Shown in pieces: positions 7,622-37,242 of a stretch of DNA of 37,284 nucleotides (position 1 is the first letter of the stretch; the number at the start of each line of letters is the position of its first letter). Location of the stretch: the NCBI GenBank assembly GCA_021785395.1, contig JAJYFO010000004.1, forward strand, positions 1 to 37,284, in the 5' to 3' direction. A model generated the notes under the pieces. That model did no database searches, was not told the DNA's origin, and worked only from the letters and a program-made list of their open reading frames with translations. The DNA comes from a bacterium (GTDB lineage: Bacteria > Cyanobacteriota > Vampirovibrionia > Obscuribacterales > JAKAZS01). Made by a program: the position numbers and the translations under genes.

Positions 7622-9332
7622 CCGTATCGAATACGATTTGTTATTAATTGGCGGTTCGCCGTCTAATTTAACATTGGCCTATGAGTTTTTAAAATTAGCC
7701 AAGACAAGTTCGCGCGAATTTTCTATCGCCATTTTAGAAAAAAGCAAAGAATTTGGCGGTCATATCATGAGTGGAGCTGTATCCAACCCCCATGTTTTAA
7801 AAAAAATATTTCCCAATTATGAAGAATTAGGTTTTCCGGTCGAAGCTATTTGTGATGACAGCAATGTTTCAGTACTTGGTATCAATAAAAAATGGGACTT
7901 ACCATCTTTTGTCTACCCTAAGTCTATGGATAAAACGGGCTACATGGTATTGACCTTAAGTTACGTAACTGCTTGGCTGGCTCGTCAGGTTGAAGAGCTA
8001 GCCAAAGACGTTCCGAACGTATCTCTCGATATTTTTACTGGTTTTTCAGCGCATAGCGTTAAAATTGAAAACGAAAAAGTCGTTGGTGTAAGCGTCGTAG
8101 AAGAACCAAAATCAGATGATGACTATGTTTTTGCTAAATTTTCGGCTTTTGGTGATAAGGGCTTTATTTCTCGTGATGTCATCGACCATTTTAAACTGAG
8201 AAATAACCCACAGATCTGGTCAGTTGGTGTTAAGGAAGTATGGCAGTGCAATGCCAACTATAGTGGTAAAGTTTGGCATACTTTAGGTTACCCACTTTTA
8301 GACGGCACTTTTGGTGGTGGCTTTGTTTATGGTATGAAAGACAATAAACTGACTATTGGCCTTGTAATCAGTCTTGATAGCCAAGACCCCAATTTAAATC
8401 CCCAGGAAAAATTACAAGAATACAAAAAACACCCTTGGATACAAGGTATGATTAAAGACGGCAAGTTGTTGAAGTATGGAGCAGCTCTTTTGCCAGAAGG
8501 TGGTTATTACAGCCTTCCGTCTAAGTTTTACGTTAATGGGGCAATTCTGCTAGGCGATGCTTTAGGTGTTCTGGATGTCAAAAACTTGGCTGGTATAGAT
8601 AGAGCCATGGAATGTGGCCATATAGCAGCTAAAGTAATCTATGACGCCATAATTAATGATAATTATCACAGCGACGCCTTAAAAGACTATCAGTTGAAGT
8701 TGCAAGATAGCTTTGTCATCAAAGAGGCATATAATAACCGCTATTTCCGTTATGCTTTCCAAGAAAACCACGATTTACTCGGTAAATACTTGCCAGATAT
8801 AGCTAAAAGTATCGACAAATCATCGCCTTATTTTGGTATGTTAAAAATTGGCTTTAAGCACCCTTTTAAGTCCACTAAAGATGGACTAAGGTCTTTGGCT
8901 TTGATCGAAGGTAAAATAGATATTGGGCCGATAACTTATAAATCAGATTCAAGCCATATAATCCCTGATTTTGTTAAACCCAAATACGATGAACCGGTTA
9001 ACTATGATAAGCAAACTATTTATTCAAGACCTGACGCTGTCTTTTTTGCTTCGACAAAGTACCATGAAGGTAATAAGCATATTGACGAGTTTAAGGCCCA
9101 GACCTGTGTTACCTGTATTCAAAAGTACGAAAGTCTAAACAAGACTACACCATGTGTTTCTGACTGTACCGCTGAAGTACATCGTATCGATGTTATTGAT
9201 AGCGTCAAAAGGCATGGAATGTCACTGGAAAACTGTATTCATTGTCGAACCTGTGAAATAGTATGCCCTGAACTCAATTTAAGGGTAAAACCAACCAGTC
9301 AAGGCTCTGGACCAGATTTTCAAGGCTTGTAA
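7605..9332 (+). CDS. electron transfer flavoprotein:quinone oxidoreductase (ETF-QO) with a C-terminal 4Fe-4S motif
   Basis: YDLLLIGGSPSNL FAD fold, GGHIMSGAV, PQIWSVGVKEVW, and C-terminal CIHCRTCEIVCP. TTG 7605 has GGAGGA 7 nt upstream. The track start TTG 7590 is an alternative. Confidence 0.88.
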   Translation: MSDQDNRIEYDLLLIGGSPSNLTLAYEFLKLAKTSSREFSIAILEKSKEFGGHIMSGAVSNPHVLKKIFPNYEELGFPVEAICDDSNVSVLGINKKWDLPSFVYPKSMDKTGYMVLTLSYVTAWLARQVEELAKDVPNVSLDIFTGFSAHSVKIENEKVVGVSVVEEPKSDDDYVFAKFSAFGDKGFISRDVIDHFKLRNNPQIWSVGVKEVWQCNANYSGKVWHTLGYPLLDGTFGGGFVYGMKDNKLTIGLVISLDSQDPNLNPQEKLQEYKKHPWIQGMIKDGKLLKYGAALLPEGGYYSLPSKFYVNGAILLGDALGVLDVKNLAGIDRAMECGHIAAKVIYDAIINDNYHSDALKDYQLKLQDSFVIKEAYNNRYFRYAFQENHDLLGKYLPDIAKSIDKSSPYFGMLKIGFKHPFKSTKDGLRSLALIEGKIDIGPITYKSDSSHIIPDFVKPKYDEPVNYDKQTIYSRPDAVFFASTKYHEGNKHIDEFKAQTCVTCIQKYESLNKTTPCVSDCTAEVHRIDVIDSVKRHGMSLENCIHCRTCEIVCPELNLRVKPTSQGSGPDFQGL

Positions 9333-9348
9333 AAATAATTAATTAGAT

Positions 9349-9846
9349 ATGCAATCTCTAAATTTATTTAACTGGATAAAACAAAACGAAGGTCAAATGG
9401 TACCACCAGTTGGTAACAAGGTTATTTGGCCAGATAGAGATTTTATTGTCATGATTATTAAAGGTCCAAATAATCGCAAAGATTTTCACATTAATGGTGG
9501 AGAAGAGTTTTTCTACCAGCTTAAGGGTAATATGGTATTAAAAACTTATGTCGACAATAAGTTTCGTAATGTTGAAATCAAAGAGGGTGAAATTTTTTTA
9601 TTACCGCCTAATACCCCACATAGCCCTCAAAGACCAAAAGATTCTATTGGTATGGTTATCGAAAAAAGAAGAGGAGCTAATGAAATAGACTCTTTTGCCT
9701 GGTATTGCGATAATTGTATGTCAAAACTTTATCAAGAAGATTTTCATCTCACAGACATAGCATCGCAATTTCCACCAATTTTTAAGAGGTTTTATGCAAG
9801 CGGTTTTAATAAGTGCAAGAATTGTGGTTTTGAATTAATCGAATAA
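9349..9846 (+). CDS. 3-hydroxyanthranilate 3,4-dioxygenase
   Basis: Cupin core RKDFHINGGEEFFYQLKGNM...PPNTPHSPQR. C-terminal CDNC...CKNC rubredoxin-like site typical of this enzyme. Confidence 0.9.
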   Translation: MQSLNLFNWIKQNEGQMVPPVGNKVIWPDRDFIVMIIKGPNNRKDFHINGGEEFFYQLKGNMVLKTYVDNKFRNVEIKEGEIFLLPPNTPHSPQRPKDSIGMVIEKRRGANEIDSFAWYCDNCMSKLYQEDFHLTDIASQFPPIFKRFYASGFNKCKNCGFELIE

Positions 9847-9866
9847 ATTTAAAATTGAGGTAGATT

Positions 9867-10871
9867 TTGAAAATTGATATTCATACCCATATTTTACCAA
9901 AATCAATACCTGATTTTAAAACTAAATTTGGATATGGCGGTTTTATTCATTCGCCAGATTTAAGCGAACCTAATAAAGACGTTAAATTATACAAAGATAG
10001 CGGGGATTTCTTTCGAACTGTTCAATACAATTGTTTTGACCTGGCGACCAGGGTACTTGACTGTAAAGAAAATAATGTAACTTGTCAGGTTTTATCTACC
10101 GTACCGGTTATGTTTAGTTATTTTGCCAAACCAGACGATGGTTTATATATTAGTCAGTTTTTAAATGATGATTTGGCTCGTAGTATTGGCGATTATCCTC
10201 ACAATTTTAAAGGGCTTGGTACATTACCAATGCAAAGTATACCTTTGGCTGTTACTGAATTAGAGCGCTGCATTAGAGATTTAAAATTATTAGGTATTGA
10301 AATAGGGACACATATTAATGAATATAATTTAGACGACGAAATATTTTATCCATTATATGAGGCTTGTTCAGACTTAAACGCCGTGATATTTATCCATCCC
10401 TGGGATATGCTAGGTCAAAAACAAATGCCCAAGTACTTTTTACCTTGGCTTGTGGGTATGCCTATGGAATTATCGCTGGCTATTTCATCGATGATATTCG
10501 GTGGAATTTTTGTTAAATTTCCCAAGCTTAAAGTTTGTTTTGCCCATGGTGGCGGGTCGTTTAGTTTTACGCTAGGTCGCATTGACCACGCTTATAGTGT
10601 TAGACCCGATTTATGCGCTAAAAATATTGATTTATCGCCCAAGCATTTTGTTGATAAATTTTACGTCGATTCGCTGGTGCATAGTCAGGAATCACTAGAT
10701 TTTATTGTAAAAATTTTTGGTTCAGATAGAATTATGGTAGGATCTGATTATCCCTTTGTTCTGGGTGAAAATAAGCCTGGTCAAATTATAGAAGAAAATA
10801 AAAATCTAAGTTGGCCTGATAAAGAAAAAATTAAATTCAAAAATGCCAAAGCCTTTTTGAATTTGTCTTGA
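9867..10871 (+). CDS. 2-amino-3-carboxymuconate-6-semialdehyde decarboxylase (ACMSD, amidohydrolase_2 family)
   Basis: KIDIHTHILP, IHPWDM, FAHGGGSF and GSDYPF metal-ligand motifs. TTG start with gagg upstream. Sits between the dioxygenase and kynureninase genes. Confidence 0.85.
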   Translation: MKIDIHTHILPKSIPDFKTKFGYGGFIHSPDLSEPNKDVKLYKDSGDFFRTVQYNCFDLATRVLDCKENNVTCQVLSTVPVMFSYFAKPDDGLYISQFLNDDLARSIGDYPHNFKGLGTLPMQSIPLAVTELERCIRDLKLLGIEIGTHINEYNLDDEIFYPLYEACSDLNAVIFIHPWDMLGQKQMPKYFLPWLVGMPMELSLAISSMIFGGIFVKFPKLKVCFAHGGGSFSFTLGRIDHAYSVRPDLCAKNIDLSPKHFVDKFYVDSLVHSQESLDFIVKIFGSDRIMVGSDYPFVLGENKPGQIIEENKNLSWPDKEKIKFKNAKAFLNLS

Positions 10872-10887
10872 AATTAAGGATTGCATA

Positions 10888-12168
10888 ATGACTATATTAA
10901 CCAAATTTGACAATACCCTTGAATCTGCTAGATTACTCGATAAAAATGATGAATTGTCGGCATACCGTGATTACTTTCACATTCCCAAAAATAAACAAAA
11001 TCAAGACGTAATTTATTTGGCTGGAAATTCTTTGGGACTAGCTCCAAAAATTTGTTCTGAGTATATCAACGAAGTTTTAAGCGACTGGCGCGATTATGGT
11101 GTCGAAGGTCATTTTAAGGCTAAAAATGCTTGGATGCCATATCACGAACTGGTAACTGAAGGGCTAAGTAATTTGACTAAAGCAGTTCCTAATGAAGTCG
11201 TAGCCATGAATTCTTTAACCGTAAATTTGCATTTGATGCTCGTATCGTTTTATCGACCTAATTCTAACCGCTATAAAATATTAATCGAGTCCAATACATT
11301 TCCGTCAGATAAATACGCTGTAGCAAGTCAGGCTAGGTTTCATGGCTATGACGATAAAGATGCTATAATTGAATTTAAAAGTTCTAACGGTGATTTGATT
11401 ATTCCAACGGTAGATATTATTGATACTATTGAAAAAAATAAAGATATCCTGGCGTTAATATTAATCGGCCAACCTAATTATTTAACAGGTCAAGCTTTTG
11501 ACCTAGATCCTATTATTGAAATGGCTAGAAAATATAAAATTCCGATAGGTTTAAATTTGGCTCATGGTATCGGTAATTTGAACCTTGATTTGCACGCATT
11601 AAACGTAGACTTTGCCGTGTGGTGCAGTTATAAATATTTAAATTCAGGGCCTGGCGGTATAGCTGGATTGTTTATACACGAAAGGCACCATAGAGACGTC
11701 GACAGGCCAAAATTTTGTGGTTGGTGGGGGCATAATCAGCGTAACCGTTTTACTATGCCAGGAAATTTTGAGTCTGAGCCTGGAGCCTATGGTTATCAGT
11801 TAAGTAATCCGCCAATATTTCAGTTGGCTGCCTTAAGAGCCAGCCTTGATATTTTTAACAAAGCCAAAATCGATAATTTGAGGCGTAAAAGTATAAATCT
11901 AACAAATTACCTTGAGTTTTTATTGAAAAACAATCCTAAAACCCAGGCATTAATTAAGGTCATAACGCCGTCTTCGTATTTAGAGCGCGGCAGTCAGTTA
12001 TCTTTACAAATATTAAACACTAATAAAAACTTTGTCGAAAACTTACAGCAAAACGGTATTATAGCTGATTTTCGTGAACCTGACATTATCAGATTCGCTC
12101 CGGTAGCCCTTTATAATACATATACCGATGTTTATAATTGTGTCAAAATCCTTGGAGATATTTTATAA
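10888..12168 (+). CDS. kynU: kynureninase (PLP-dependent)
   Basis: YLAGNSLGLAP, and WCSYKYLNSGPGG containing the PLP lysine. Typical length of 426 aa. Confidence 0.92.
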   Translation: MTILTKFDNTLESARLLDKNDELSAYRDYFHIPKNKQNQDVIYLAGNSLGLAPKICSEYINEVLSDWRDYGVEGHFKAKNAWMPYHELVTEGLSNLTKAVPNEVVAMNSLTVNLHLMLVSFYRPNSNRYKILIESNTFPSDKYAVASQARFHGYDDKDAIIEFKSSNGDLIIPTVDIIDTIEKNKDILALILIGQPNYLTGQAFDLDPIIEMARKYKIPIGLNLAHGIGNLNLDLHALNVDFAVWCSYKYLNSGPGGIAGLFIHERHHRDVDRPKFCGWWGHNQRNRFTMPGNFESEPGAYGYQLSNPPIFQLAALRASLDIFNKAKIDNLRRKSINLTNYLEFLLKNNPKTQALIKVITPSSYLERGSQLSLQILNTNKNFVENLQQNGIIADFREPDIIRFAPVALYNTYTDVYNCVKILGDIL

Positions 12169-12169
12169 A

Positions 12170-13591
12170 ATGACCGATAAATCTAAACACCTAACGCTAA
12201 TTGGTGCTGGTTTGGTAGGCAGTTTACTGGCCATAGTTCTAGCTCGGCACGGGTATAAGATTAAATTATTAGAAAAACGACCCGATATGCGCAAGCTAAT
12301 CGTCGACCGTGGCAGGTCTATTAACCTGGCTATTTCTACCAGAGGCATCAAGGCTCTAGATATAATTGGCCTAAAAGACACTATTTTAGCTAAAGCTATC
12401 GCTATGTATGGTAGGGCTATTCATAATATGGGTGGAAATGTGACGTTTCAGCCGTATGGAATTAATAATAACTACTATATCAACTCTATTTCTCGAAGCG
12501 CTTTAAATATTGACTTGTTAAATGAATGTTCAAAATATAACGATATTGAAATTTTATTTGGTCAAAATGTTGTTGAGGTTGATTTTGATAATTCTAAGAT
12601 TATTACTGACAATAAAGACCAATATAGTTTTAATACCCTAATTGGCTGTGACGGGTCGGCTTCGGTAATTAGAAGTTTCTATAAATTTAAGCCTGGTTTT
12701 AAGCAAAGTATCGACGAACTTGATTACGGCTATAAAGAATTTACGATTAGACCAAATCCTGATGGTAGTTTTAAAATGGCTGAAAATGCTTTGCATATCT
12801 GGCCAAGGGGTAATTTTATGCTAATTGCTTTGCCTAATTTGGAAGCAAGTTTTACCGTCACTCTATTCTTACCCTACATTGGTGATATAAGTTTTGCCAA
12901 ATTAAAAACTAAACCCGATATAGAAGCATTTTTTAAAACTTACTTTAAAGATACGATTGACCTAATCGACGATTACGCCGATAATTTCCTAAATTCTCCT
13001 ACTGGCCATATGGTTACGGTCAAATCTGACCCATGGAGTATCGGCGATAAGGCTCTATTAATTGGCGATGCGGCTCATGGGATCATTCCTTTTTATGGCC
13101 AGGGTATGAATTGCGGTTTTGAAGACGTTAGTGTACTGGACTCTTTACTTGGGTCAAACAATGATACTTTAAGTAATTTAGACCTTACCAGTTTATTTGC
13201 CGAATTTTTTGCCAAGCGCAAGCCTAATTGTGACGCTATAAGCGATATGGCGTATGAGAATTTTATTGAAATGCGCGATAAAGTTGGTGATACAAAATTT
13301 TTATTCTTTAAAAAAATAGAAGCTGTCCTTGAACATAAGTTTAAAGGTGAATACTTTTCGCGCTATACTTTGGTCAGTTTTAGTAATCTGCCTTATAATT
13401 TCGCCAAATTAATGGGTGAAGTCAATTATGAGATTTTAAACGAATTGGCTCAAAATATTTCTGACCACAACGAAATAGACTTTGATTTAGCCAGTGAATT
13501 GATTAAGTCTAAGACAAAACCTTTGATAAATAAATACGCAAGTGAATTAAAAGACTTAATAAACGACGACCCTTATAAACAGAATAAATAA
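12170..13591 (+). CDS. kmo: kynurenine 3-monooxygenase (FAD-dependent)
   Basis: LIGAGLVGSLLA dinucleotide fold, CDGSASVIR, and LIGDAAHGIIPFYGQGMNCGFED. ATG 12170 lies 1 nt after the kynU stop with ggaga upstream. Track start 12128 overlaps kynU and was rejected. Confidence 0.9.
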   Translation: MTDKSKHLTLIGAGLVGSLLAIVLARHGYKIKLLEKRPDMRKLIVDRGRSINLAISTRGIKALDIIGLKDTILAKAIAMYGRAIHNMGGNVTFQPYGINNNYYINSISRSALNIDLLNECSKYNDIEILFGQNVVEVDFDNSKIITDNKDQYSFNTLIGCDGSASVIRSFYKFKPGFKQSIDELDYGYKEFTIRPNPDGSFKMAENALHIWPRGNFMLIALPNLEASFTVTLFLPYIGDISFAKLKTKPDIEAFFKTYFKDTIDLIDDYADNFLNSPTGHMVTVKSDPWSIGDKALLIGDAAHGIIPFYGQGMNCGFEDVSVLDSLLGSNNDTLSNLDLTSLFAEFFAKRKPNCDAISDMAYENFIEMRDKVGDTKFLFFKKIEAVLEHKFKGEYFSRYTLVSFSNLPYNFAKLMGEVNYEILNELAQNISDHNEIDFDLASELIKSKTKPLINKYASELKDLINDDPYKQNK

Positions 13592-31499: not shown

Positions 31500-32423
31500 T
31501 TGATAATCACAAAACAAACCAATGTAAGTCTAATTTACGTTCCCATTCATTATGGAGGAGGACATTCTGGGGCCAGTCTTGGACCTGCGGCGGTCAAGGC
31601 TACGAATTTAAATAAACTATTAAATTTTCAGGGAATAACCGTTGTCGGTGAAGTCGACATCGAAGTCCCTAGTGTCGAAGATATCAATATTAAAAATCCT
31701 AAGTTGCGCTACCTTGACCAAATCGTCCAGGTCTGTAATTCGGTTGCCTTAGCTACGCAAAAAGCTCTTGAACAGGGTTCTTTTCCGGTTATAATAGGTG
31801 GCGACCATAGTTTTGCCATAGGCAGTATTGCTGGGGCTAGTAATTTTTATCGCAAGCAAAATAAAGAACTCGGTCTTATATGGTTTGACGCTCATGGCGA
31901 TATGAATACGCAAGAAACCAGTCTCAGTGGCAATATTCATGGTATGCCATTGGCTAAGACGGTTGGCTTTGGTGACAGTAACTTAACCCAAATATACGGC
32001 TATAAGCCCAAAGTTAAATCTGAAAACACGGTTCTTATAGGTCTTAGGGATGTAGACGAGGAAGAAAAAAAGATAATCAAAAAAAGTGAAATTATTTCGT
32101 ATACCATGTCTGACATTGACCATATAGGAATTAACGAAATATTGGAAAAATCTGTTAAGGCCTTAAATCAAAACGTCGAAGCTATTCATGTGTCTTTTGA
32201 CCTTGACGTGATTGACCCACAATACGCACCTGGCGTTAGCACACCGGTTGATGGTGGGATTAATTTTCGCGAGTCTATGCAAATCATGTCATACTTAGCG
32301 CAATACGGCAAAATATGTTCGCTTGACATTGCCGAGCTAAACCCCTTAAACGATATTAAAAATAAAACGGGTGAATTAGCCTGCAATTTAATCTTGACCT
32401 GTTTAGGTAAAAATATGCTTTAA
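31500..32423 (+). CDS. rocF: arginase (ureohydrolase family)
   Basis: GGDHSFAIGSIAG, WFDAHGDMNT, SGNIHGMPLA and SFDLDVIDP. TTG start with aagggg upstream. Confidence 0.85.
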   Translation: MIITKQTNVSLIYVPIHYGGGHSGASLGPAAVKATNLNKLLNFQGITVVGEVDIEVPSVEDINIKNPKLRYLDQIVQVCNSVALATQKALEQGSFPVIIGGDHSFAIGSIAGASNFYRKQNKELGLIWFDAHGDMNTQETSLSGNIHGMPLAKTVGFGDSNLTQIYGYKPKVKSENTVLIGLRDVDEEEKKIIKKSEIISYTMSDIDHIGINEILEKSVKALNQNVEAIHVSFDLDVIDPQYAPGVSTPVDGGINFRESMQIMSYLAQYGKICSLDIAELNPLNDIKNKTGELACNLILTCLGKNML

Positions 32424-32483: not shown

Positions 32484-33236
32484 ATGTCAGTTCAATTAGA
32501 AAAAAAACATGAAAAGATGATGGAAAAAATTCAAAATGGTGAAAAGTTGGAGTCACCAGCTGAAATTACTGATGAGTATAAAGAGCATTTGCTAACCTTA
32601 CTTATTGCCCAGGCTGACTCTGAATTAGCTGGAGCTTACGGTTATATTCCGTGGATAGAAGGAGCCCCTAATGTAGCTGAAAAGCTTGTTATGGCCAATA
32701 TTGTCAAGGACGAATGTCGCCATGCCAAGGCAATTTACGATTTAATCGACCGTTTTGGCATAAATGTTGACAAGTTGATTCATGAAGATAAAATGAAAAA
32801 TCGCATGAAAGTATTTTACGAGCCCATCAGAACTTGGGCTGATTTGGTGATGTTCAATTTTTTAATGGACAGAGCCGCCGGACACCAATTGCAAGATGCG
32901 GCTCAATGCAGCTGGGGTCCTTGGTCGAGAGCCATGCAGCAAATCGAAAAAGAAGAATGGATGCATGTAAAACATGGTGAAACATGGGTTAAGAAGTTAG
33001 CTATCGACGTCAACCAAAAGGCAAAAATTCAAGAAGCCCTAGACTTCTGGTTTCCTAAGGTTAATCGGGTATTTGGCAAACCAGGCACCGATTCCAATAA
33101 TGCTTTTCAAAAATTTAAACTTAAACAGCGCGACAACCATGAAGTAAGAGTCGCCTGGTATAAGGAAATCAAAGAACTATTAGAGTCTTATGGTTTGACT
33201 GTTCCTGATATTTCTGTTGTAGAAAGAAGCAAGTAA
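32484..33236 (+). CDS. PaaA-like diiron acyl-CoA oxygenase subunit (phenylacetic acid catabolic protein family), short 250-aa form
   Basis: Candidate carboxylate/His ligands are present: E47 (DSELAG), E77-x2-H80 (DECRH, nt 32712..32723), D129 (LMDRAAGH), E158-x2-H161 (EEWMH). Length is closer to PaaC but the ligand set is like PaaA. Confidence 0.75.
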   Translation: MSVQLEKKHEKMMEKIQNGEKLESPAEITDEYKEHLLTLLIAQADSELAGAYGYIPWIEGAPNVAEKLVMANIVKDECRHAKAIYDLIDRFGINVDKLIHEDKMKNRMKVFYEPIRTWADLVMFNFLMDRAAGHQLQDAAQCSWGPWSRAMQQIEKEEWMHVKHGETWVKKLAIDVNQKAKIQEALDFWFPKVNRVFGKPGTDSNNAFQKFKLKQRDNHEVRVAWYKEIKELLESYGLTVPDISVVERSK

Positions 33237-33251
33237 TTAAATTTCACTAAA

Positions 33252-33713
33252 ATGAAAAATTTAGATATCCTGGGTGTGACGAAAAATACTGAAGTCATAG
33301 TTAGTGATACCATGGTTGCTACATTAGGCGGTAGAGTAATTCATCCTTTGTTGTCTTCTTGCGCCTTGATCCAAGAAATGGAATGGGCATCTAGGTTAAC
33401 TATAATCGATTATCTCGACAATGAAGAAGATGCCATGGGGACAAAAATAGTTTTGAATCACAGAAAACCCACTCCTGTAGGTATGAAAATTAAAATCTGC
33501 GCTACAATTATCGAAATTGAAGGTGAAAAAATTAACTGTAAAGTTGAAGCATTTAGCGATTTTGGGCTAATTGCTGATGGCTGCGTTGAACAGACCGTAG
33601 TAAAAAAAAACTGGCTTGAGGCCAAAATTCAAAAATTAAATACATTAGTTAAGGCAAATAAGGAGGACAATCATGATAAAAATGATGGCGATATACAAAA
33701 AACCACTAAATAA
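33252..33713 (+). CDS. hotdog-fold thioesterase (FlK/PaaI-like) with a charged C-terminal tail
   Basis: VSDTMVATLGGRVIHPLLSSCALIQEMEWAS...GTKIVLNHRKPTPVGMKI pattern. 15 nt after the oxygenase gene. Confidence 0.7.
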   Translation: MKNLDILGVTKNTEVIVSDTMVATLGGRVIHPLLSSCALIQEMEWASRLTIIDYLDNEEDAMGTKIVLNHRKPTPVGMKIKICATIIEIEGEKINCKVEAFSDFGLIADGCVEQTVVKKNWLEAKIQKLNTLVKANKEDNHDKNDGDIQKTTK

Positions 33714-33981
33714 AGATGAATTTGATAATTATTATTTTAACACCCACTTACCGCTGGCCAGTAAAATGCCAGGTCTAAGGCGCGTTGAAATCGATAAAAT
33801 ATATGGAACTCCGTTTGGTGAAACTAACTATTATATGATCGCTAACATGTATTTTGATTCTAAAGAAGATTTAAATTCGGCCTTGTCTTCGCCCGAAGGA
33901 AGAGCCTGTGGTAAGGATCTTAAAAATTTTACAACCGATAACGTAGAACTCGTGTTTAGTCAGGTTGACAGTAATAACTAA
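33673..33981 (+). CDS. EthD-domain protein
   Basis: MIKMMAIYKKP..DEFDNYYFNTHLPLASKMPGLRR.E resembles EthD-family proteins. AGGAGG lies 6 nt upstream of the ATG, inside the thioesterase tail (41-nt overlap). Confidence 0.75.
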   Translation: MIKMMAIYKKPLNKDEFDNYYFNTHLPLASKMPGLRRVEIDKIYGTPFGETNYYMIANMYFDSKEDLNSALSSPEGRACGKDLKNFTTDNVELVFSQVDSNN

Positions 33982-34001
33982 GAATTTTTTATGGAGATGA
34001 A

Positions 34002-34952
34002 ATGAATTCATGTACACTAACAGCTGATAAAACTATAAAATTCGAGCGTTTGATATACGAAAAAAAAGATTTTACAGCTAAAATAACTATTAATCGGCCT
34101 AAAGTATACAACTGTTTTGATTATTTGACTTTAAAAGAACTAGCCAAAGCCTATGAGGACGTAAGCTACGATGATAATATAGCCGTTTTGATAATAACCG
34201 GATCTGGTCGAGAAGCCTTTTGTACTGGTGCTGATTTAAAAGAACAGGCCACGTTTACGCTCGACCGAGGCGATAATTACTACAAGTGGATGTACGCTTT
34301 TATAGAAATGCACGACCGTTTGCGTAATATAGGTAAGCCTACTATTGCTCGTCTTAACGGCATGGTCGTGGGTGGTGGTAATGAATTGAACATGGCCTGT
34401 GATTTGGCTATAGCTAGTAATCATGTAACCATTCGGCAAGTTGGAGCCGCACGTGGATCGGTAGCAGCTGGCGGAGCTACCCAGTGGCTGCCTTTAATTG
34501 TTGGCGACCGTAGGGCCCGTGAAATATTAATGACTTGTGAGCCTATTTCGGCGCAAAAAGCTTTAGAATGGGGGCTGGTTAATGAAGTCGTTCCGTATGA
34601 TGAGTTGGATAAAGCTTGCGAAAAACTGGCTCAAAAGTTATACAATAAGTTACCTGGCTGTATGCGTTATACCAAACAGCAATTAAATTTCTGGCGCGAT
34701 TTTTCATGGGGAATGACGATTGGTCACGCTAGAGACTGGTTAACTGTTCATGCCAACGCCTATGAAACCAAGTATGGATTGCAGGCGTTTATCGATAAAA
34801 GTGAACTCGATTATGCAAAAGTTAGAGCCAGGCATGTTATGGGTGAATTACCATATCAAAATGCTATTGACTTAATAGTCTGTAAAAAATGTGATACTAA
34901 AAACCCCAGCAATTTTAAATTTTGTGGAAACTGTGGTAATGCTTTGATTTAA
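34002..34952 (+). CDS. enoyl-CoA hydratase/isomerase superfamily protein (MenB/BadI-like) fused to a C-terminal zinc ribbon
   Basis: ITINRPKVYNCF, ITGSGREAFCTGADL, NGMVVGGGNELNMACDL and GLVNEVVP. C-terminal CKKC-x10-CGNC at nt 34881..34934. Confidence 0.85.
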   Translation: MNSCTLTADKTIKFERLIYEKKDFTAKITINRPKVYNCFDYLTLKELAKAYEDVSYDDNIAVLIITGSGREAFCTGADLKEQATFTLDRGDNYYKWMYAFIEMHDRLRNIGKPTIARLNGMVVGGGNELNMACDLAIASNHVTIRQVGAARGSVAAGGATQWLPLIVGDRRAREILMTCEPISAQKALEWGLVNEVVPYDELDKACEKLAQKLYNKLPGCMRYTKQQLNFWRDFSWGMTIGHARDWLTVHANAYETKYGLQAFIDKSELDYAKVRARHVMGELPYQNAIDLIVCKKCDTKNPSNFKFCGNCGNALI

Positions 34953-34963
34953 GGGAGTATTTT

Positions 34964-35746
34964 ATGCAAACAAATTATGAATTTATTAAATCGTTAATCC
35001 TTGATGATTCAATAGGATTAGTAGAATTGAACCGTCCCAAACTTCTCAATGCCCTTAATATTGGTCTTATGAAGGAATTAGCTAAAGAGTTAAAGGAACT
35101 AGATGATAACGAAAACATAAAAGTCATAGTCTTGACTGGTAACCAGAAAGCCTTTGCGGCCGGAGCTGATATTGGCGAAATGGCAAATGAAGATACCGTC
35201 TCTATTATGCTCAAAGACAATTTCAGTACCTGGGATTCAATAGCCAATATCAAAACGCCAATTATTGCAAGTGTAAGTGGCTACGCTTTAGGTGGTGGCT
35301 TAGAATTAGTTATGACCTGTGATATCATTGTGGCTGGCGAAGACGCAAAATTTGGCCAACCAGAAATTAATTTGGGGGTTATACCTGGCGCTGGTGGCAC
35401 GCAGAGATTAACTAGAGCCATTGGTAAATATAGAGCCAGTGAACTTATTTTAACCGGTGAACTGATTACAGCACGACAGATGTATGATTACGGTTTAATT
35501 AATAAGGTAGTTCCAAACGAACTATATTTAACAGCTGCTTTAACTATAGCTAGAGAAATAGCTAAAAAATCAAGGATTGCCTTAAGGCTTGGTAAGGAAG
35601 CAATAAATAAATCTTTTGATTTAAATTTGAAAGAAGGTCTAAATTTGGAGCGAAAAAACTTTTATATGTTATTTTCCTCACAAGACCAAAAAGAAGGGAT
35701 GAAGGCTTTTATTGAAAAGCGCAAACCCCAGTTTGTTGGACGTTAA
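34964..35746 (+). CDS. enoyl-CoA hydratase (short-chain crotonase, PaaF/Ech-like)
   Basis: LNRPKLLNAL, LTGNQKAFAAGADI, GYALGGGLELVMTCD, GAGGTQRL and EGMKAFIEKRKP. Confidence 0.9.
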   Translation: MQTNYEFIKSLILDDSIGLVELNRPKLLNALNIGLMKELAKELKELDDNENIKVIVLTGNQKAFAAGADIGEMANEDTVSIMLKDNFSTWDSIANIKTPIIASVSGYALGGGLELVMTCDIIVAGEDAKFGQPEINLGVIPGAGGTQRLTRAIGKYRASELILTGELITARQMYDYGLINKVVPNELYLTAALTIAREIAKKSRIALRLGKEAINKSFDLNLKEGLNLERKNFYMLFSSQDQKEGMKAFIEKRKPQFVGR

Positions 35747-35771
35747 ACTTAATTTTATTAAAGAGGTAAAT

Positions 35772-36569
35772 ATGACAGACCAAAATATTTTGACTTACGA
35801 TGTTAAAGATAAAGTTGCTACTATAACATTAAACCGACCCGATAAACTAAACGCTTTTAACGATGAACTTACTTTTGCTTTACAAGACGCCTTAGATAGC
35901 GCCAATAAAGATAAAAACGTTCGCAGTGTTATTTTGACCGGATCTGGTCGTGGGTTCTGTGCTGGTCAGGATTTGGCCAGTCGCAATATAAAGGATAATG
36001 ATACGAGTTTTAATCTAGGTGACTCGATTCGCAAACGCTATAACCCTATAATAATTAAAATTAGGCGCATAGAAAAACCAATTATTGCGGCGATTAATGG
36101 GGTTGCAGCCGGAGCTGGAGCTAGTCTTGCCTTTGCCTGTGATTTTAAACTATGTGTTAGTAGTGTAAAATTTATCCAATCGTTTAGTAAAGTTGGTCTT
36201 GTACCAGATTCAGGCTCAACATTTATGCTTCCAAGACTAATCGGCCTTACTAAAGCTTTCGAGCTTATGCTTTTAGCTTCGCCGTTAACGGCTGAAGAGG
36301 CTTTGAAACTTGGTTTAGTTAATAATGTTTATGATACACCCGAAGAGTTAATGCTCAAAGCGTCTGAGTTAGCGATTAACTTGGCTAATGGGCCTAGTTT
36401 TGCCTATGGACTAACTAAAAGAGCCGTTAACCGGAGTCTATTTCCTGATTTAGAAGAACTTTTAGAATACGAAGCTTGCTTGCAAGAATTAGCTGGTAAA
36501 AGCGACGATTTTAAAGAAGGTGTTCAAGCCTTTTTAAATAAACGAGAACCCGTTTATCAGGGTAAATAG
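35772..36569 (+). CDS. enoyl-CoA hydratase/isomerase, PaaG-like
   Basis: ATITLNRPDKLNAF, LTGSGRGFCAGQDL, NGVAAGAGASLAFACD and EGVQAFLNKREP. ATG 35772 with aagagg upstream is preferred to track start 35712, which overlaps the previous gene. Confidence 0.85.
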   Translation: MTDQNILTYDVKDKVATITLNRPDKLNAFNDELTFALQDALDSANKDKNVRSVILTGSGRGFCAGQDLASRNIKDNDTSFNLGDSIRKRYNPIIIKIRRIEKPIIAAINGVAAGAGASLAFACDFKLCVSSVKFIQSFSKVGLVPDSGSTFMLPRLIGLTKAFELMLLASPLTAEEALKLGLVNNVYDTPEELMLKASELAINLANGPSFAYGLTKRAVNRSLFPDLEELLEYEACLQELAGKSDDFKEGVQAFLNKREPVYQGK

Positions 36570-36684
36570 TATTAATATTTTTTATAAAGTTTATCTAAAC
36601 TTCAAAATTACTTATTTATTAAATTAGGCTTAAACTAAATGTTTGTTTTTAGCCTTGATTCTTTATTCTACTATGGAGATACAT

Positions 36685-37242
36685 ATGGCCAACAAGGTAC
36701 TTTTACTTATGGATTTACAAAACGCCATTTTACAGATGGCCAATGCTAAAGACAATTACTATGAAAAAATCAATAATGTAATTTCATACGCTCGCAAAGA
36801 ATTAATTCCGGTTATATTTGTAGTAGTTAAATTCCGCAAAAATTATCCTGAAATTAATTCTAATAACAAAAGTTTCAATTCGATAAAATCGATGGGATTT
36901 TCTTTTGAGGATAACAGTGAGTTGGTTCAAATAAGTCCCAAAATTGATTGTAATCCAGATGATATAATAATTACAAAACGCAGAGTAAGTGCCTTTAGTG
37001 GGTCTGATTTAGAAATTATTTTAAAGTCACAAAATATTAATCATTTGGTTTTAACAGGTATTGCTACCAGTGGTGTCGTTCTATCTACTATAAGAGAAGC
37101 TTGCGATAAAGATTATCAAGTAACAGTAATTGAAGATTGCTGTTTGGATATGGATGATGAAGTTCATAGGGTTTTAACTGAAAAAATATTTCCTAAACAA
37201 GCTAGTGTAATAAAAGCTGAACAGTTTATTTTAGGTAAATAA
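36685..37242 (+). CDS. isochorismatase-family hydrolase lacking the usual nucleophilic Cys
   Basis: VLLLMDLQN (Asp), ITKRRVSAF (Lys), and LVLTGIATSGVVLST with Val (nt 37075..37077) where the family Cys normally sits. ATG 36685 with ggaga upstream is preferred to 36643. Confidence 0.8.
   Translation: MANKVLLLMDLQNAILQMANAKDNYYEKINNVISYARKELIPVIFVVVKFRKNYPEINSNNKSFNSIKSMGFSFEDNSELVQISPKIDCNPDDIIITKRRVSAFSGSDLEIILKSQNINHLVLTGIATSGVVLSTIREACDKDYQVTVIEDCCLDMDDEVHRVLTEKIFPKQASVIKAEQFILGK

Follow-up and report, generated by a model that had tools for sequence, protein, structure and literature searches.

Phenylacetyl-CoA 1,2-epoxidase is a textbook multicomponent diiron oxygenase that acts on a coenzyme A (CoA) ester; it is usually built from five proteins (PaaABCDE), with PaaA as the catalytic subunit. 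The DNA analysed here, a window of 37,284 bp that makes up the entire contig C266 (GenBank JAJYFO010000004.1) of a member of the Obscuribacterales, encodes a lone PaaA-type protein amid genes for enzymes of CoA thioesters, and raises the question of whether such an oxygenase can work alone and in which pathway it would do so. The host belongs to the uncultured Melainabacteria, i.e. to the non-photosynthetic relatives of cyanobacteria, and its assembly comprises 2.83 Mb, is 88.5% complete and has 36.6% G+C. Based on sequence comparisons and structure predictions, we suggest that the genes at 32484-36569 are a conserved Obscuribacterales operon for a reduced, non-canonical aerobic phenylacetyl-CoA (paa) pathway, a reading to which we give about an even chance of being correct. 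Seven open reading frames lie on the + strand between 32484 and 37242, where a preliminary description of this DNA, made from its letters, had placed them, and profile matches agree with the families that it had named:

32484-33236, + strand: PaaA-type diiron protein of 250 amino acids (aa) (PF05138, PaaA_PaaC, 150 bits), candidate aryl-acetyl-CoA ring epoxidase
33252-33713, + strand: FlK-type hotdog acyl-CoA thioesterase (PF22636, 92 bits; PDB 2cwz and FlK 3kuv)
33673-33981, + strand: EthD-family protein of 102 aa (TIGR02118, 111 bits, cut-off 30.5; PF07110 family)
34002-34952, + strand: ECH1, MenB/BadI-like crotonase with a C-terminal CxxC-x10-CxxC zinc ribbon (ECH_1, 172 bits, and Zn_Ribbon_1)
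34964-35746, + strand: ECH2, PaaF-like enoyl-CoA hydratase (PaaF model NF007239, 309.5 bits, cut-off 371)
35772-36569, + strand: ECH3, PaaG-like isomerase-type crotonase (PaaG model TIGR02280, 297 bits, cut-off 345)
36643-37242, + strand: isochorismatase-family protein without the nucleophile Cys (PF00857, 123 bits)

The lone PaaA-like protein

Compared with the solved structures, the product of the first gene matches E. coli PaaA from end to end, and its residues E47, E77, H80, D129, E158 and H161 coincide, column for column, with E42, E72, H75, D126, E155 and H158, which are listed as the diiron ligands of PaaA (PMC4498308). Thus, all six of the ligands that the preliminary description had proposed for a stand-alone subunit of the size of PaaC align with PaaA sites. 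Phe108 of PaaA, which orients the phenyl ring of the substrate (PMC4498308), is retained (F111 in the window protein), and there is still a basic residue close to the position of Lys103. By contrast, E. coli PaaC has CLQDAH in the ligand columns in which the window protein has EEHDEH. In other words, the ligand set is degenerate in PaaC and complete in the window protein, so that the length of 250 aa is the sole feature that this protein has in common with PaaC. It scores 60.8 bits on the PaaC model TIGR02158 (cut-off 133) and 36.3 bits on the BoxB model TIGR03225 (cut-off 499).

The AlphaFold (AF2) model of the protein has a predicted local distance difference test score (pLDDT) of 96.3. Its best fold match in Foldseek is PaaA (3pw8_C; query-normalised TM-score, TMq, 0.89; root-mean-square deviation 1.7 Å), and further matches are SSO1313 (TMq 0.78), PaaC (0.77) and BoxB (0.72, with a target-normalised TM-score, TMt, of 0.40). 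The protein is also predicted to form a homodimer, with an ipSAE of 0.80 as opposed to 0.00 for the best control, an interface at residues 48-99, all (100%) of the contacts shared between three runs and a pLDDT of 91 for the partner; in calibration this level was attained by 20 of the 30 proteins whose structures are one-chain pairs and by 1 of the 23 whose structures are single chains, and the pass may reflect likeness to known structures because related complexes have been solved (PaaA-PaaC, and the four chains in 4MUD). Across the order, the protein is 71-92% identical, the highest value of all proteins of the cluster, which argues against a decaying remnant. By these alignments and models the protein is PaaA-like and looks functional.

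Two proteins of known structure are instructive for comparison. E. coli PaaA (PDB 3PVR, 3PW1, 3PW8 and 4IIT) shares with the window protein the Pfam family, the fold, the six ligands, Phe108 and neighbours of the PaaK, PaaG and PaaF types; however, the identity is ~26-29%, PaaA has 309 aa instead of 250 aa, and PaaA forms a heterodimer with PaaC while the window protein is a predicted homodimer. SSO1313 of Sulfolobus solfataricus (PDB 4MUD) is likewise a short PaaA-family protein (235 aa) that was deposited alone, in four copies, and it matches the window protein with an E-value of 4e-21; it is only about 25% identical, and its title, from structural genomics, is 'ring oxidation complex / phenylacetic acid degradation-like protein'. 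In a literature search, we found no study of stand-alone PaaA proteins.

Some PaaA-family domains occur in fusion proteins, i.e. NTP_transf_5 with a PaaA-like domain (637 aa), PaaX with PaaA (648 aa) and PaaA with PaaB (379 aa) (P0128, P0213 and P0218, respectively). Fusions of PaaA-like domains, read as Rosetta stones (NTP_transf_5, PaaX, PaaB, Wzy_C), gave no hint for the clade of the window oxygenase.

A conserved cluster without PaaBCDE

The conserved cluster comprises six genes, of which the PaaA-like gene is the first and the PaaG-like crotonase gene the last (32484-36569). We compared 30 related loci, which come from Melainabacteria-type metagenome-assembled genomes (MAGs) or from bins with other labels; 26 of them extend past the PaaA-like gene. 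In 22 of these 26, a gene for a 448-aa ligase directly follows the PaaA-like gene, and the ligase (e.g. L012:10784-12130) scores 610 bits on the PaaK model TIGR02155, for which the cut-off is 646.3. The PaaA-like gene leads straight to the thioesterase gene only in L002 and L003, which belong to the genus of the window, and in L007 and L022. The EthD gene and the three crotonase genes follow wherever the contig is long enough, and the thioesterase gene is present in ten loci. In two loci (L028 and L029; 10001-10728 and the ligase region), the tblastn matches to the PaaA-like and ligase genes are split, which fits frameshifts or assembly errors.

No PaaK-type ligase was found in the genome of the window or in its genus. 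Thus, the genus has lost PaaK, and the CoA ester must come from another source. A search for indolepyruvate:ferredoxin oxidoreductase, as a ligase-free source of phenylacetyl-CoA, returned weak matches to generic 2-oxoacid oxidoreductases only. The near-orthologue of PaaK in 22 of the 26 loci points to phenylacetate-like substrates rather than to an unrelated route. The preliminary description, which had proposed a different aromatic or alicyclic route, holds in so far as the operon is not an ordinary paa operon.

The other components of the canonical pathway are missing. A tblastn search of the window with the E. coli Paa set gave no homologue of PaaB, C, D, E, I, K, Z, H or J, in line with the earlier statement that PaaBCDE, ligase, thiolase and dehydrogenase are not encoded there. 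A search of the genome in the same way, with 13 E. coli Paa proteins as queries, gave only PaaA-, PaaF-, PaaG-, PaaH-, PaaJ- and PaaY-like matches and generic aldehyde dehydrogenase-like ones, and nothing for PaaB, C, D, E, I and K. Family searches of the genome likewise gave no PaaB, no PaaK-family ligase and no PaaE above the cut-off, and the gene at 32484-33236 is the single PF05138 gene of the genome. Moreover, PaaB is found in none of the 61 Obscuribacterales genomes of our order-wide survey. What the genome does encode, outside the window, are a thiolase that is 55% identical to PaaJ and lies amid unrelated genes, and scattered PaaH-like dehydrogenases, one of which has 397 aa and a duplicated C-terminal domain. 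Thus, the genome-wide search that the preliminary description had called for confirms the lack of PaaB-E and PaaK but does not extend it to the thiolase and the dehydrogenases.

The contig ends 42 nt past the last gene, and the preliminary description had considered that the cluster might continue past 37284. In L003, a locus of the same genus that is collinear with the window through the PaaG-like gene, ECH3 is followed by a convergent mutS2 gene, and the downstream stretch of L003 maps to contig C204 of the window genome. On this basis, we reject an operon that continues past the contig end, and with it the view of the cluster as an ordinary paa operon of which the contig shows only a part.

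The mutS2 gene in L003 occupies the position of the isochorismatase-like gene. This gene had been counted as a member of the cluster; however, none of the 30 related loci has a homologue of it and, therefore, it represents a local insertion and not a cluster member. The earlier observation that its product lacks the Cys holds: alignment to solved family members shows that the GxxTxxC motif of isochorismatases reads GIATSGVV, with Val at the position of the nucleophile Cys. The start of the gene is more likely at ATG 36673 or 36685 than at 36643.

Weighing a proposed reduced phenylacetyl-CoA pathway

In the pathway that we propose, a stand-alone homodimeric PaaA-type diiron enzyme would oxygenate the ring of an aryl-acetyl-CoA, with phenylacetyl-CoA or a close analogue as the likeliest substrate. 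It would do so without PaaB, PaaC, PaaD and PaaE, using electrons from a non-dedicated donor; a ferredoxin or flavoprotein of general use and EthD are candidates. The PaaG-like crotonase would then isomerise the epoxide, and the zinc-ribbon MenB/BadI-like crotonase would open the ring hydrolytically in place of the hydratase domain of PaaZ. The PaaF-like hydratase, together with the scattered PaaH-like dehydrogenases and the PaaJ-like thiolase, could complete the β-oxidation-like breakdown, and the FlK-type thioesterase may, like PaaI and PaaY, release CoA when intermediates stall. In most relatives, the free acid would be activated by the PaaK ligase that is encoded directly after the oxygenase gene. 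We infer all reaction steps that go beyond the family assignments, and among them the assignment of ECH1 to ring hydrolysis, of EthD to electron transfer and of the thioesterase to proofreading. The reading of the cluster as Paa-type relies on the company of PaaK-, PaaG-, PaaF-, PaaH- and PaaJ-like genes and EthD, on the ligands and Phe108, and on conservation.

ECH2 and E. coli PaaF share 45% identity, and both have the two catalytic Glu residues (GGGLE and GQPE in ECH2). ECH3 is 45% identical to E. coli PaaG and, like PaaG, has neither hydratase Glu and keeps the Asp of GLxPD (GL(V/I)PD). For ECH3, the start at ATG 35772, which has AGAGG upstream, is more likely than TTG 35712. ECH1 is closest to the crotonases that form or cleave C-C bonds, i.e. 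MenB (1,4-dihydroxy-2-naphthoyl-CoA synthase) and BadI (2-ketocyclohexanecarboxyl-CoA hydrolase), and its best PDB matches are MenB. However, its scores are about half the cut-offs (179 bits on MenB TIGR01929, cut-off 343; 175 bits on BadI TIGR03210, cut-off 468), and it differs from both in having one hydratase-type Glu, the first of the pair (GGGNE), and an added C-terminal zinc ribbon. In the alignment, the catalytic residues Asp163 and Tyr97 of MenB are not kept and coincide with Ala and Asp, respectively. ECH1 is a candidate for the ring (oxepin-CoA) hydrolase of the proposed pathway. The thioesterase may have a PaaI-like role. The EthD gene starts 41 nt inside the thioesterase gene, and its product matches PDB 2ftr (BH0200) with an E-value of 1e-25.

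Two known systems are close in part. In the paa cluster of Exiguobacterium sp. RIT 594, described in the only paper that we found to connect EthD with phenylacetate, the gene order is given as paaK-paaA-paaB-paaC-paaD-EthD-hydratase-aldehyde dehydrogenase-dehydrogenase-thiolase-hydratase-paaX (PMC9416434). As in the window, an EthD gene thus lies among paa genes, and the gene list given there names no paaE; by contrast, the Exiguobacterium cluster keeps PaaA, B, C and D, aldehyde dehydrogenase, dehydrogenase, thiolase and PaaX, while the window has a lone PaaA-like protein and an additional MenB/BadI-like crotonase. In the BoxB/BoxC system of Azoarcus evansii (BoxB, PDB 3PM5), a diiron epoxidase of a CoA ester is likewise followed by a ring-cleaving enzyme of the crotonase family. 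However, BoxB has ~470 aa, no equivalog of BoxA or BoxC is present, and the ligase of the relatives is of the PaaK type and not a benzoate-CoA ligase.

Several observations weigh against this pathway. The first group concerns the oxygenase itself. Its score on the PaaA model TIGR02156 misses the equivalog cut-off by far (131.1 bits against 280). In a tree of 144 rows, canonical PaaA of ~310 aa, together with PaaC, separates from the short proteins in two groups, each with 97% support in the Shimodaira-Hasegawa-like approximate likelihood ratio test (SH-aLRT). The window protein lies in a group of 6 Obscuribacterales rows (96%) inside a group of 11 rows (95%); the phylogenetic placement that the preliminary description had asked for thus puts it in the short clade, apart from both canonical PaaA and PaaC. 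The 'lysine bridge' Lys68-Glu49 of PaaA, the proposed path for electrons from PaaE (PMC4498308), is absent, K68 being replaced by I73 and E49 by Y54 in all six aligned Obscuribacterales proteins; the 16 nearest relatives outside the order, too, most often have Ile and Tyr there. The protein stops at PaaA position 246 and, consequently, lacks the last ~60 residues of PaaA with the Leu286 door. E. coli PaaA is insoluble alone, and activity requires PaaB, C and E (PMC4498308). Our literature search found no paper on the clade of this oxygenase and no tested substrate for any of its members.

The second group concerns the distribution of the genes. In the genome of the window, the cluster has no linked gene for a ligase, for an aldehyde dehydrogenase partner or for an identified reductase. 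Among the 61 genomes, the PaaA-like orthologue is present in only 17, while the ligase is present in 55. In a further 28 genomes, the PF05138 proteins are of a weaker, second type only, and the other 16 encode none; the ligase is encoded in all of these 16, and 11 of them are at least 90% complete. The core of the cluster, therefore, cannot strictly depend on a PaaA-family epoxidase. All six loci that we sampled in genomes without the orthologue keep the ligase, ECH1, ECH2 and ECH3 together and have no oxygenase with them, with EthD in five and the thioesterase in two. Of the six genomes without the ligase, five have the PaaA-like orthologue, and the sixth (G059, 76% complete) has the second PF05138 type only. 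Thus, the oxygenase is an accessory to a core of ligase, EthD and crotonases and not an obligate first step; in genomes without the orthologue, either another oxygenase serves or the function of the core needs none.

The second type of PF05138 protein usually comes as two subunits encoded in tandem, one liganded (EEHTEH) and the other degenerate (e.g. QKMAEH), similar to PaaA and PaaC, at loci with unrelated neighbours and no PaaB (L046:5912-7584; L047:5335-6981 on the - strand; L048:5497-7078; L049:6595-7374). We considered this pair as a substitute epoxidase, and in view of the unrelated neighbours drew no conclusion.

This distribution suggests an alternative in which the ligase, the thioesterase, EthD and the three crotonases are a self-sufficient module for CoA thioesters. 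Its main substrate would need no PaaA-type oxygenation and would perhaps not be phenylacetate, and the PaaA-like protein would be an optional hydroxylase or epoxidase of aryl- or alkyl-CoA that widens the substrate range. It would account for the 44 of 61 genomes without the oxygenase orthologue, the 16 among them without any PF05138 protein and the sampled loci in which the core stands alone, and it agrees with the assignment of ECH1 to no named family and with the mixed surroundings of the closest relatives of the oxygenase outside the order. In addition, a Planctomycetota MAG (L064:8600-16007) encodes an adjacent FlK thioesterase and EthD and, within 7 kb, three crotonases that correspond one to one to ECH1 (64% identity), ECH2 (54%) and ECH3 (47%); thioesterase, EthD and three crotonases thus form an independent module that extends beyond one phylum, and the lack of an oxygenase or ligase gene within 9 kb of it counts against the pathway that we propose. 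Nevertheless, we regard this alternative as rather unlikely. The ligase is nearly a PaaK equivalog (610 of 646 bits), ECH2 and ECH3 fit PaaF and PaaG by sequence and catalytic signature, and the PaaA-like gene, where present, is almost always within the cluster and directly upstream of paaK. To our knowledge, there is no crotonase-only, non-oxygenolytic fate of phenylacetyl-CoA.

A second alternative is that the PaaA-like protein is an O2-dependent diiron desaturase or hydroxylase of acyl-CoA, which would feed a sequence of the β-oxidation type in the place of an acyl-CoA dehydrogenase. Acyl desaturases are among the ferritin-like diiron enzymes, and the fold search also returned aldehyde-deformylating oxygenases, weakly (TMq about 0.6). 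Moreover, at loci of the Bacteroidota type the gene is paired with enoyl-CoA hydratase/isomerase, 3-hydroxyacyl-CoA dehydrogenase and thiolase genes, and no acyl-CoA dehydrogenase was called there. However, the crotonase next to the gene in Bacteroidota is of the PaaG, i.e. isomerase, type (49% identical to ECH3), and the trio of dehydrogenase, thiolase and isomerase is equally that of the lower paa pathway. As the ring-orienting Phe108 is retained and the adjacency to PaaK in Obscuribacterales suggests an aryl-acetate, this alternative appears improbable to us.

Finally, an ordinary paa operon with paaBCDE, K, Z, H and J past the end of the contig, or a route that handles CoA esters of the anthranilate type, derived from kynurenine, as the preliminary description had proposed, is suggested by the nearby contig end and by the kynurenine gene set in the window (9349-13591) and is nonetheless highly improbable, given the mutS2 gene after ECH3 in L003, the lack of PaaB in the order and of PaaB, C, D, E and K in a genome that is 88.5% complete, and the position of the kynurenine genes, which are separated from the cluster by 19 kb, with unrelated signalling genes on both strands in between, and do not occur near the related clusters that we examined (L007, L012, L041 and L043).

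A broader form of the reduced phenylacetyl-CoA pathway would be that a self-sufficient homodimeric PaaA-type epoxidase, with a donor that may involve EthD, and a zinc-ribbon crotonase that replaces PaaZ make up an undescribed minimal aerobic phenylacetate pathway in several phyla; this we put forward tentatively, as a possibility that we consider somewhat more likely to be wrong than right. If it is correct, a lone liganded PaaA would show the minimal size of such an oxygenase and the way in which it is reduced, and would provide a simpler catalyst for the epoxidation of aryl-CoA, an entry to oxepin and tropone chemistry. It would also give EthD, which recurs in paa clusters, and the zinc-ribbon crotonase roles that are open to testing, and would indicate that non-photosynthetic relatives of cyanobacteria can degrade aromatic acids aerobically.

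Relatives in other phyla and neighbouring genes

Outside the order, the genes of the cluster recur in different combinations. PaaA-like proteins with 46-48% identity, one of them labelled Bacteroidota, are encoded next to genes for split, PaaH-like 3-hydroxyacyl-CoA dehydrogenases; one follows the PaaG-like crotonase that is 49% identical to ECH3, two have a thiolase in the cluster, and none of the called genes within 10 kb on either side encodes PaaB-E. We count these surroundings in favour of the Paa-type reading. At one locus (L066:2476-5478), the PaaA-like gene is followed by genes for a 3-hydroxyacyl-CoA dehydrogenase, an FMN reductase and a peroxiredoxin, and a neighbouring gene encodes a protein with the Por secretion tail that is typical of Bacteroidota. 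The FMN reductase is a possible electron donor. The other closest relatives outside the order have mixed surroundings, e.g. sugar-modifying genes or a gene for a GGDEF protein, and the contexts of the nearest ones outside Obscuribacterales (P0121, P0122 and P0125) are short or unrelated. In a sample of 301 genomes of the phylum, homologues with ~50% identity are present in three further families; in one family of the same class, none of 123 small genomes has one.

A distinct clade of PaaA-family proteins of ~316-320 aa is represented by two short contigs (L056:19-1706 and L057:384-1738), in which the gene is followed by a small FeS_assembly_P (DUF59, PaaD-like) gene. A DUF59 gene also lies upstream in L056, and the upstream gene in L057 has no Pfam record. 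We considered a link of this second, long clade to EthD and rejected it, since the flanking genes encode DUF59 and not EthD.

With the EthD proteins of Brevibacillus, Aneurinibacillus and Collibacillus, the EthD of the window shares 55% identity, and other Obscuribacterales EthD proteins are no closer. In Aneurinibacillus (L063:9001-10684), the gene for the EthD orthologue (55%) is followed by genes for two 4HBT thioesterases and one thioesterase of the FlK type, which suggests that EthD works with thioesterases more generally. A search for homologues of ECH1 returned Melainabacteria only among the best 120 matches, and the one occurrence that we saw outside this class is that at the Planctomycetota locus L064.

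In the large family of the order, the cluster has a conserved neighbour on its upstream side (L041:8316-9239, L007:8968-9801 and L045:6790-7719), a gene for a protein of ~300 aa that has a hydrophobic helix at its N-terminus and matches no Pfam family. The neighbour is there whether or not the cluster includes the PaaA-like gene, and the genome of the window lacks it. In the window, an arginase gene (31500-32423, + strand; TIGR01229 above cut-off) ends 60 nt upstream of the PaaA-like gene, and this position is kept only within the genus (L002 and L003). The signalling genes, on both strands and unrelated to the cluster, lie farther upstream. An Rfam search of the window gave no match, and a scan of the window for promoters and terminators gave no informative signal in the AT-rich DNA.

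The window also carries a unit of + strand genes at 5596-13591 that begins with genes for the β and α subunits of electron-transfer flavoprotein (ETF) and for ETF:quinone oxidoreductase (ETF-QO). The kynurenine genes follow at 9349-13591 and encode a 3-hydroxyanthranilate 3,4-dioxygenase, an amidohydrolase similar to aminocarboxymuconate semialdehyde decarboxylase (ACMSD), a kynureninase and a flavoprotein similar to kynurenine-3-monooxygenase; the kynurenine branch thus looks complete in this Melainabacteria genome.

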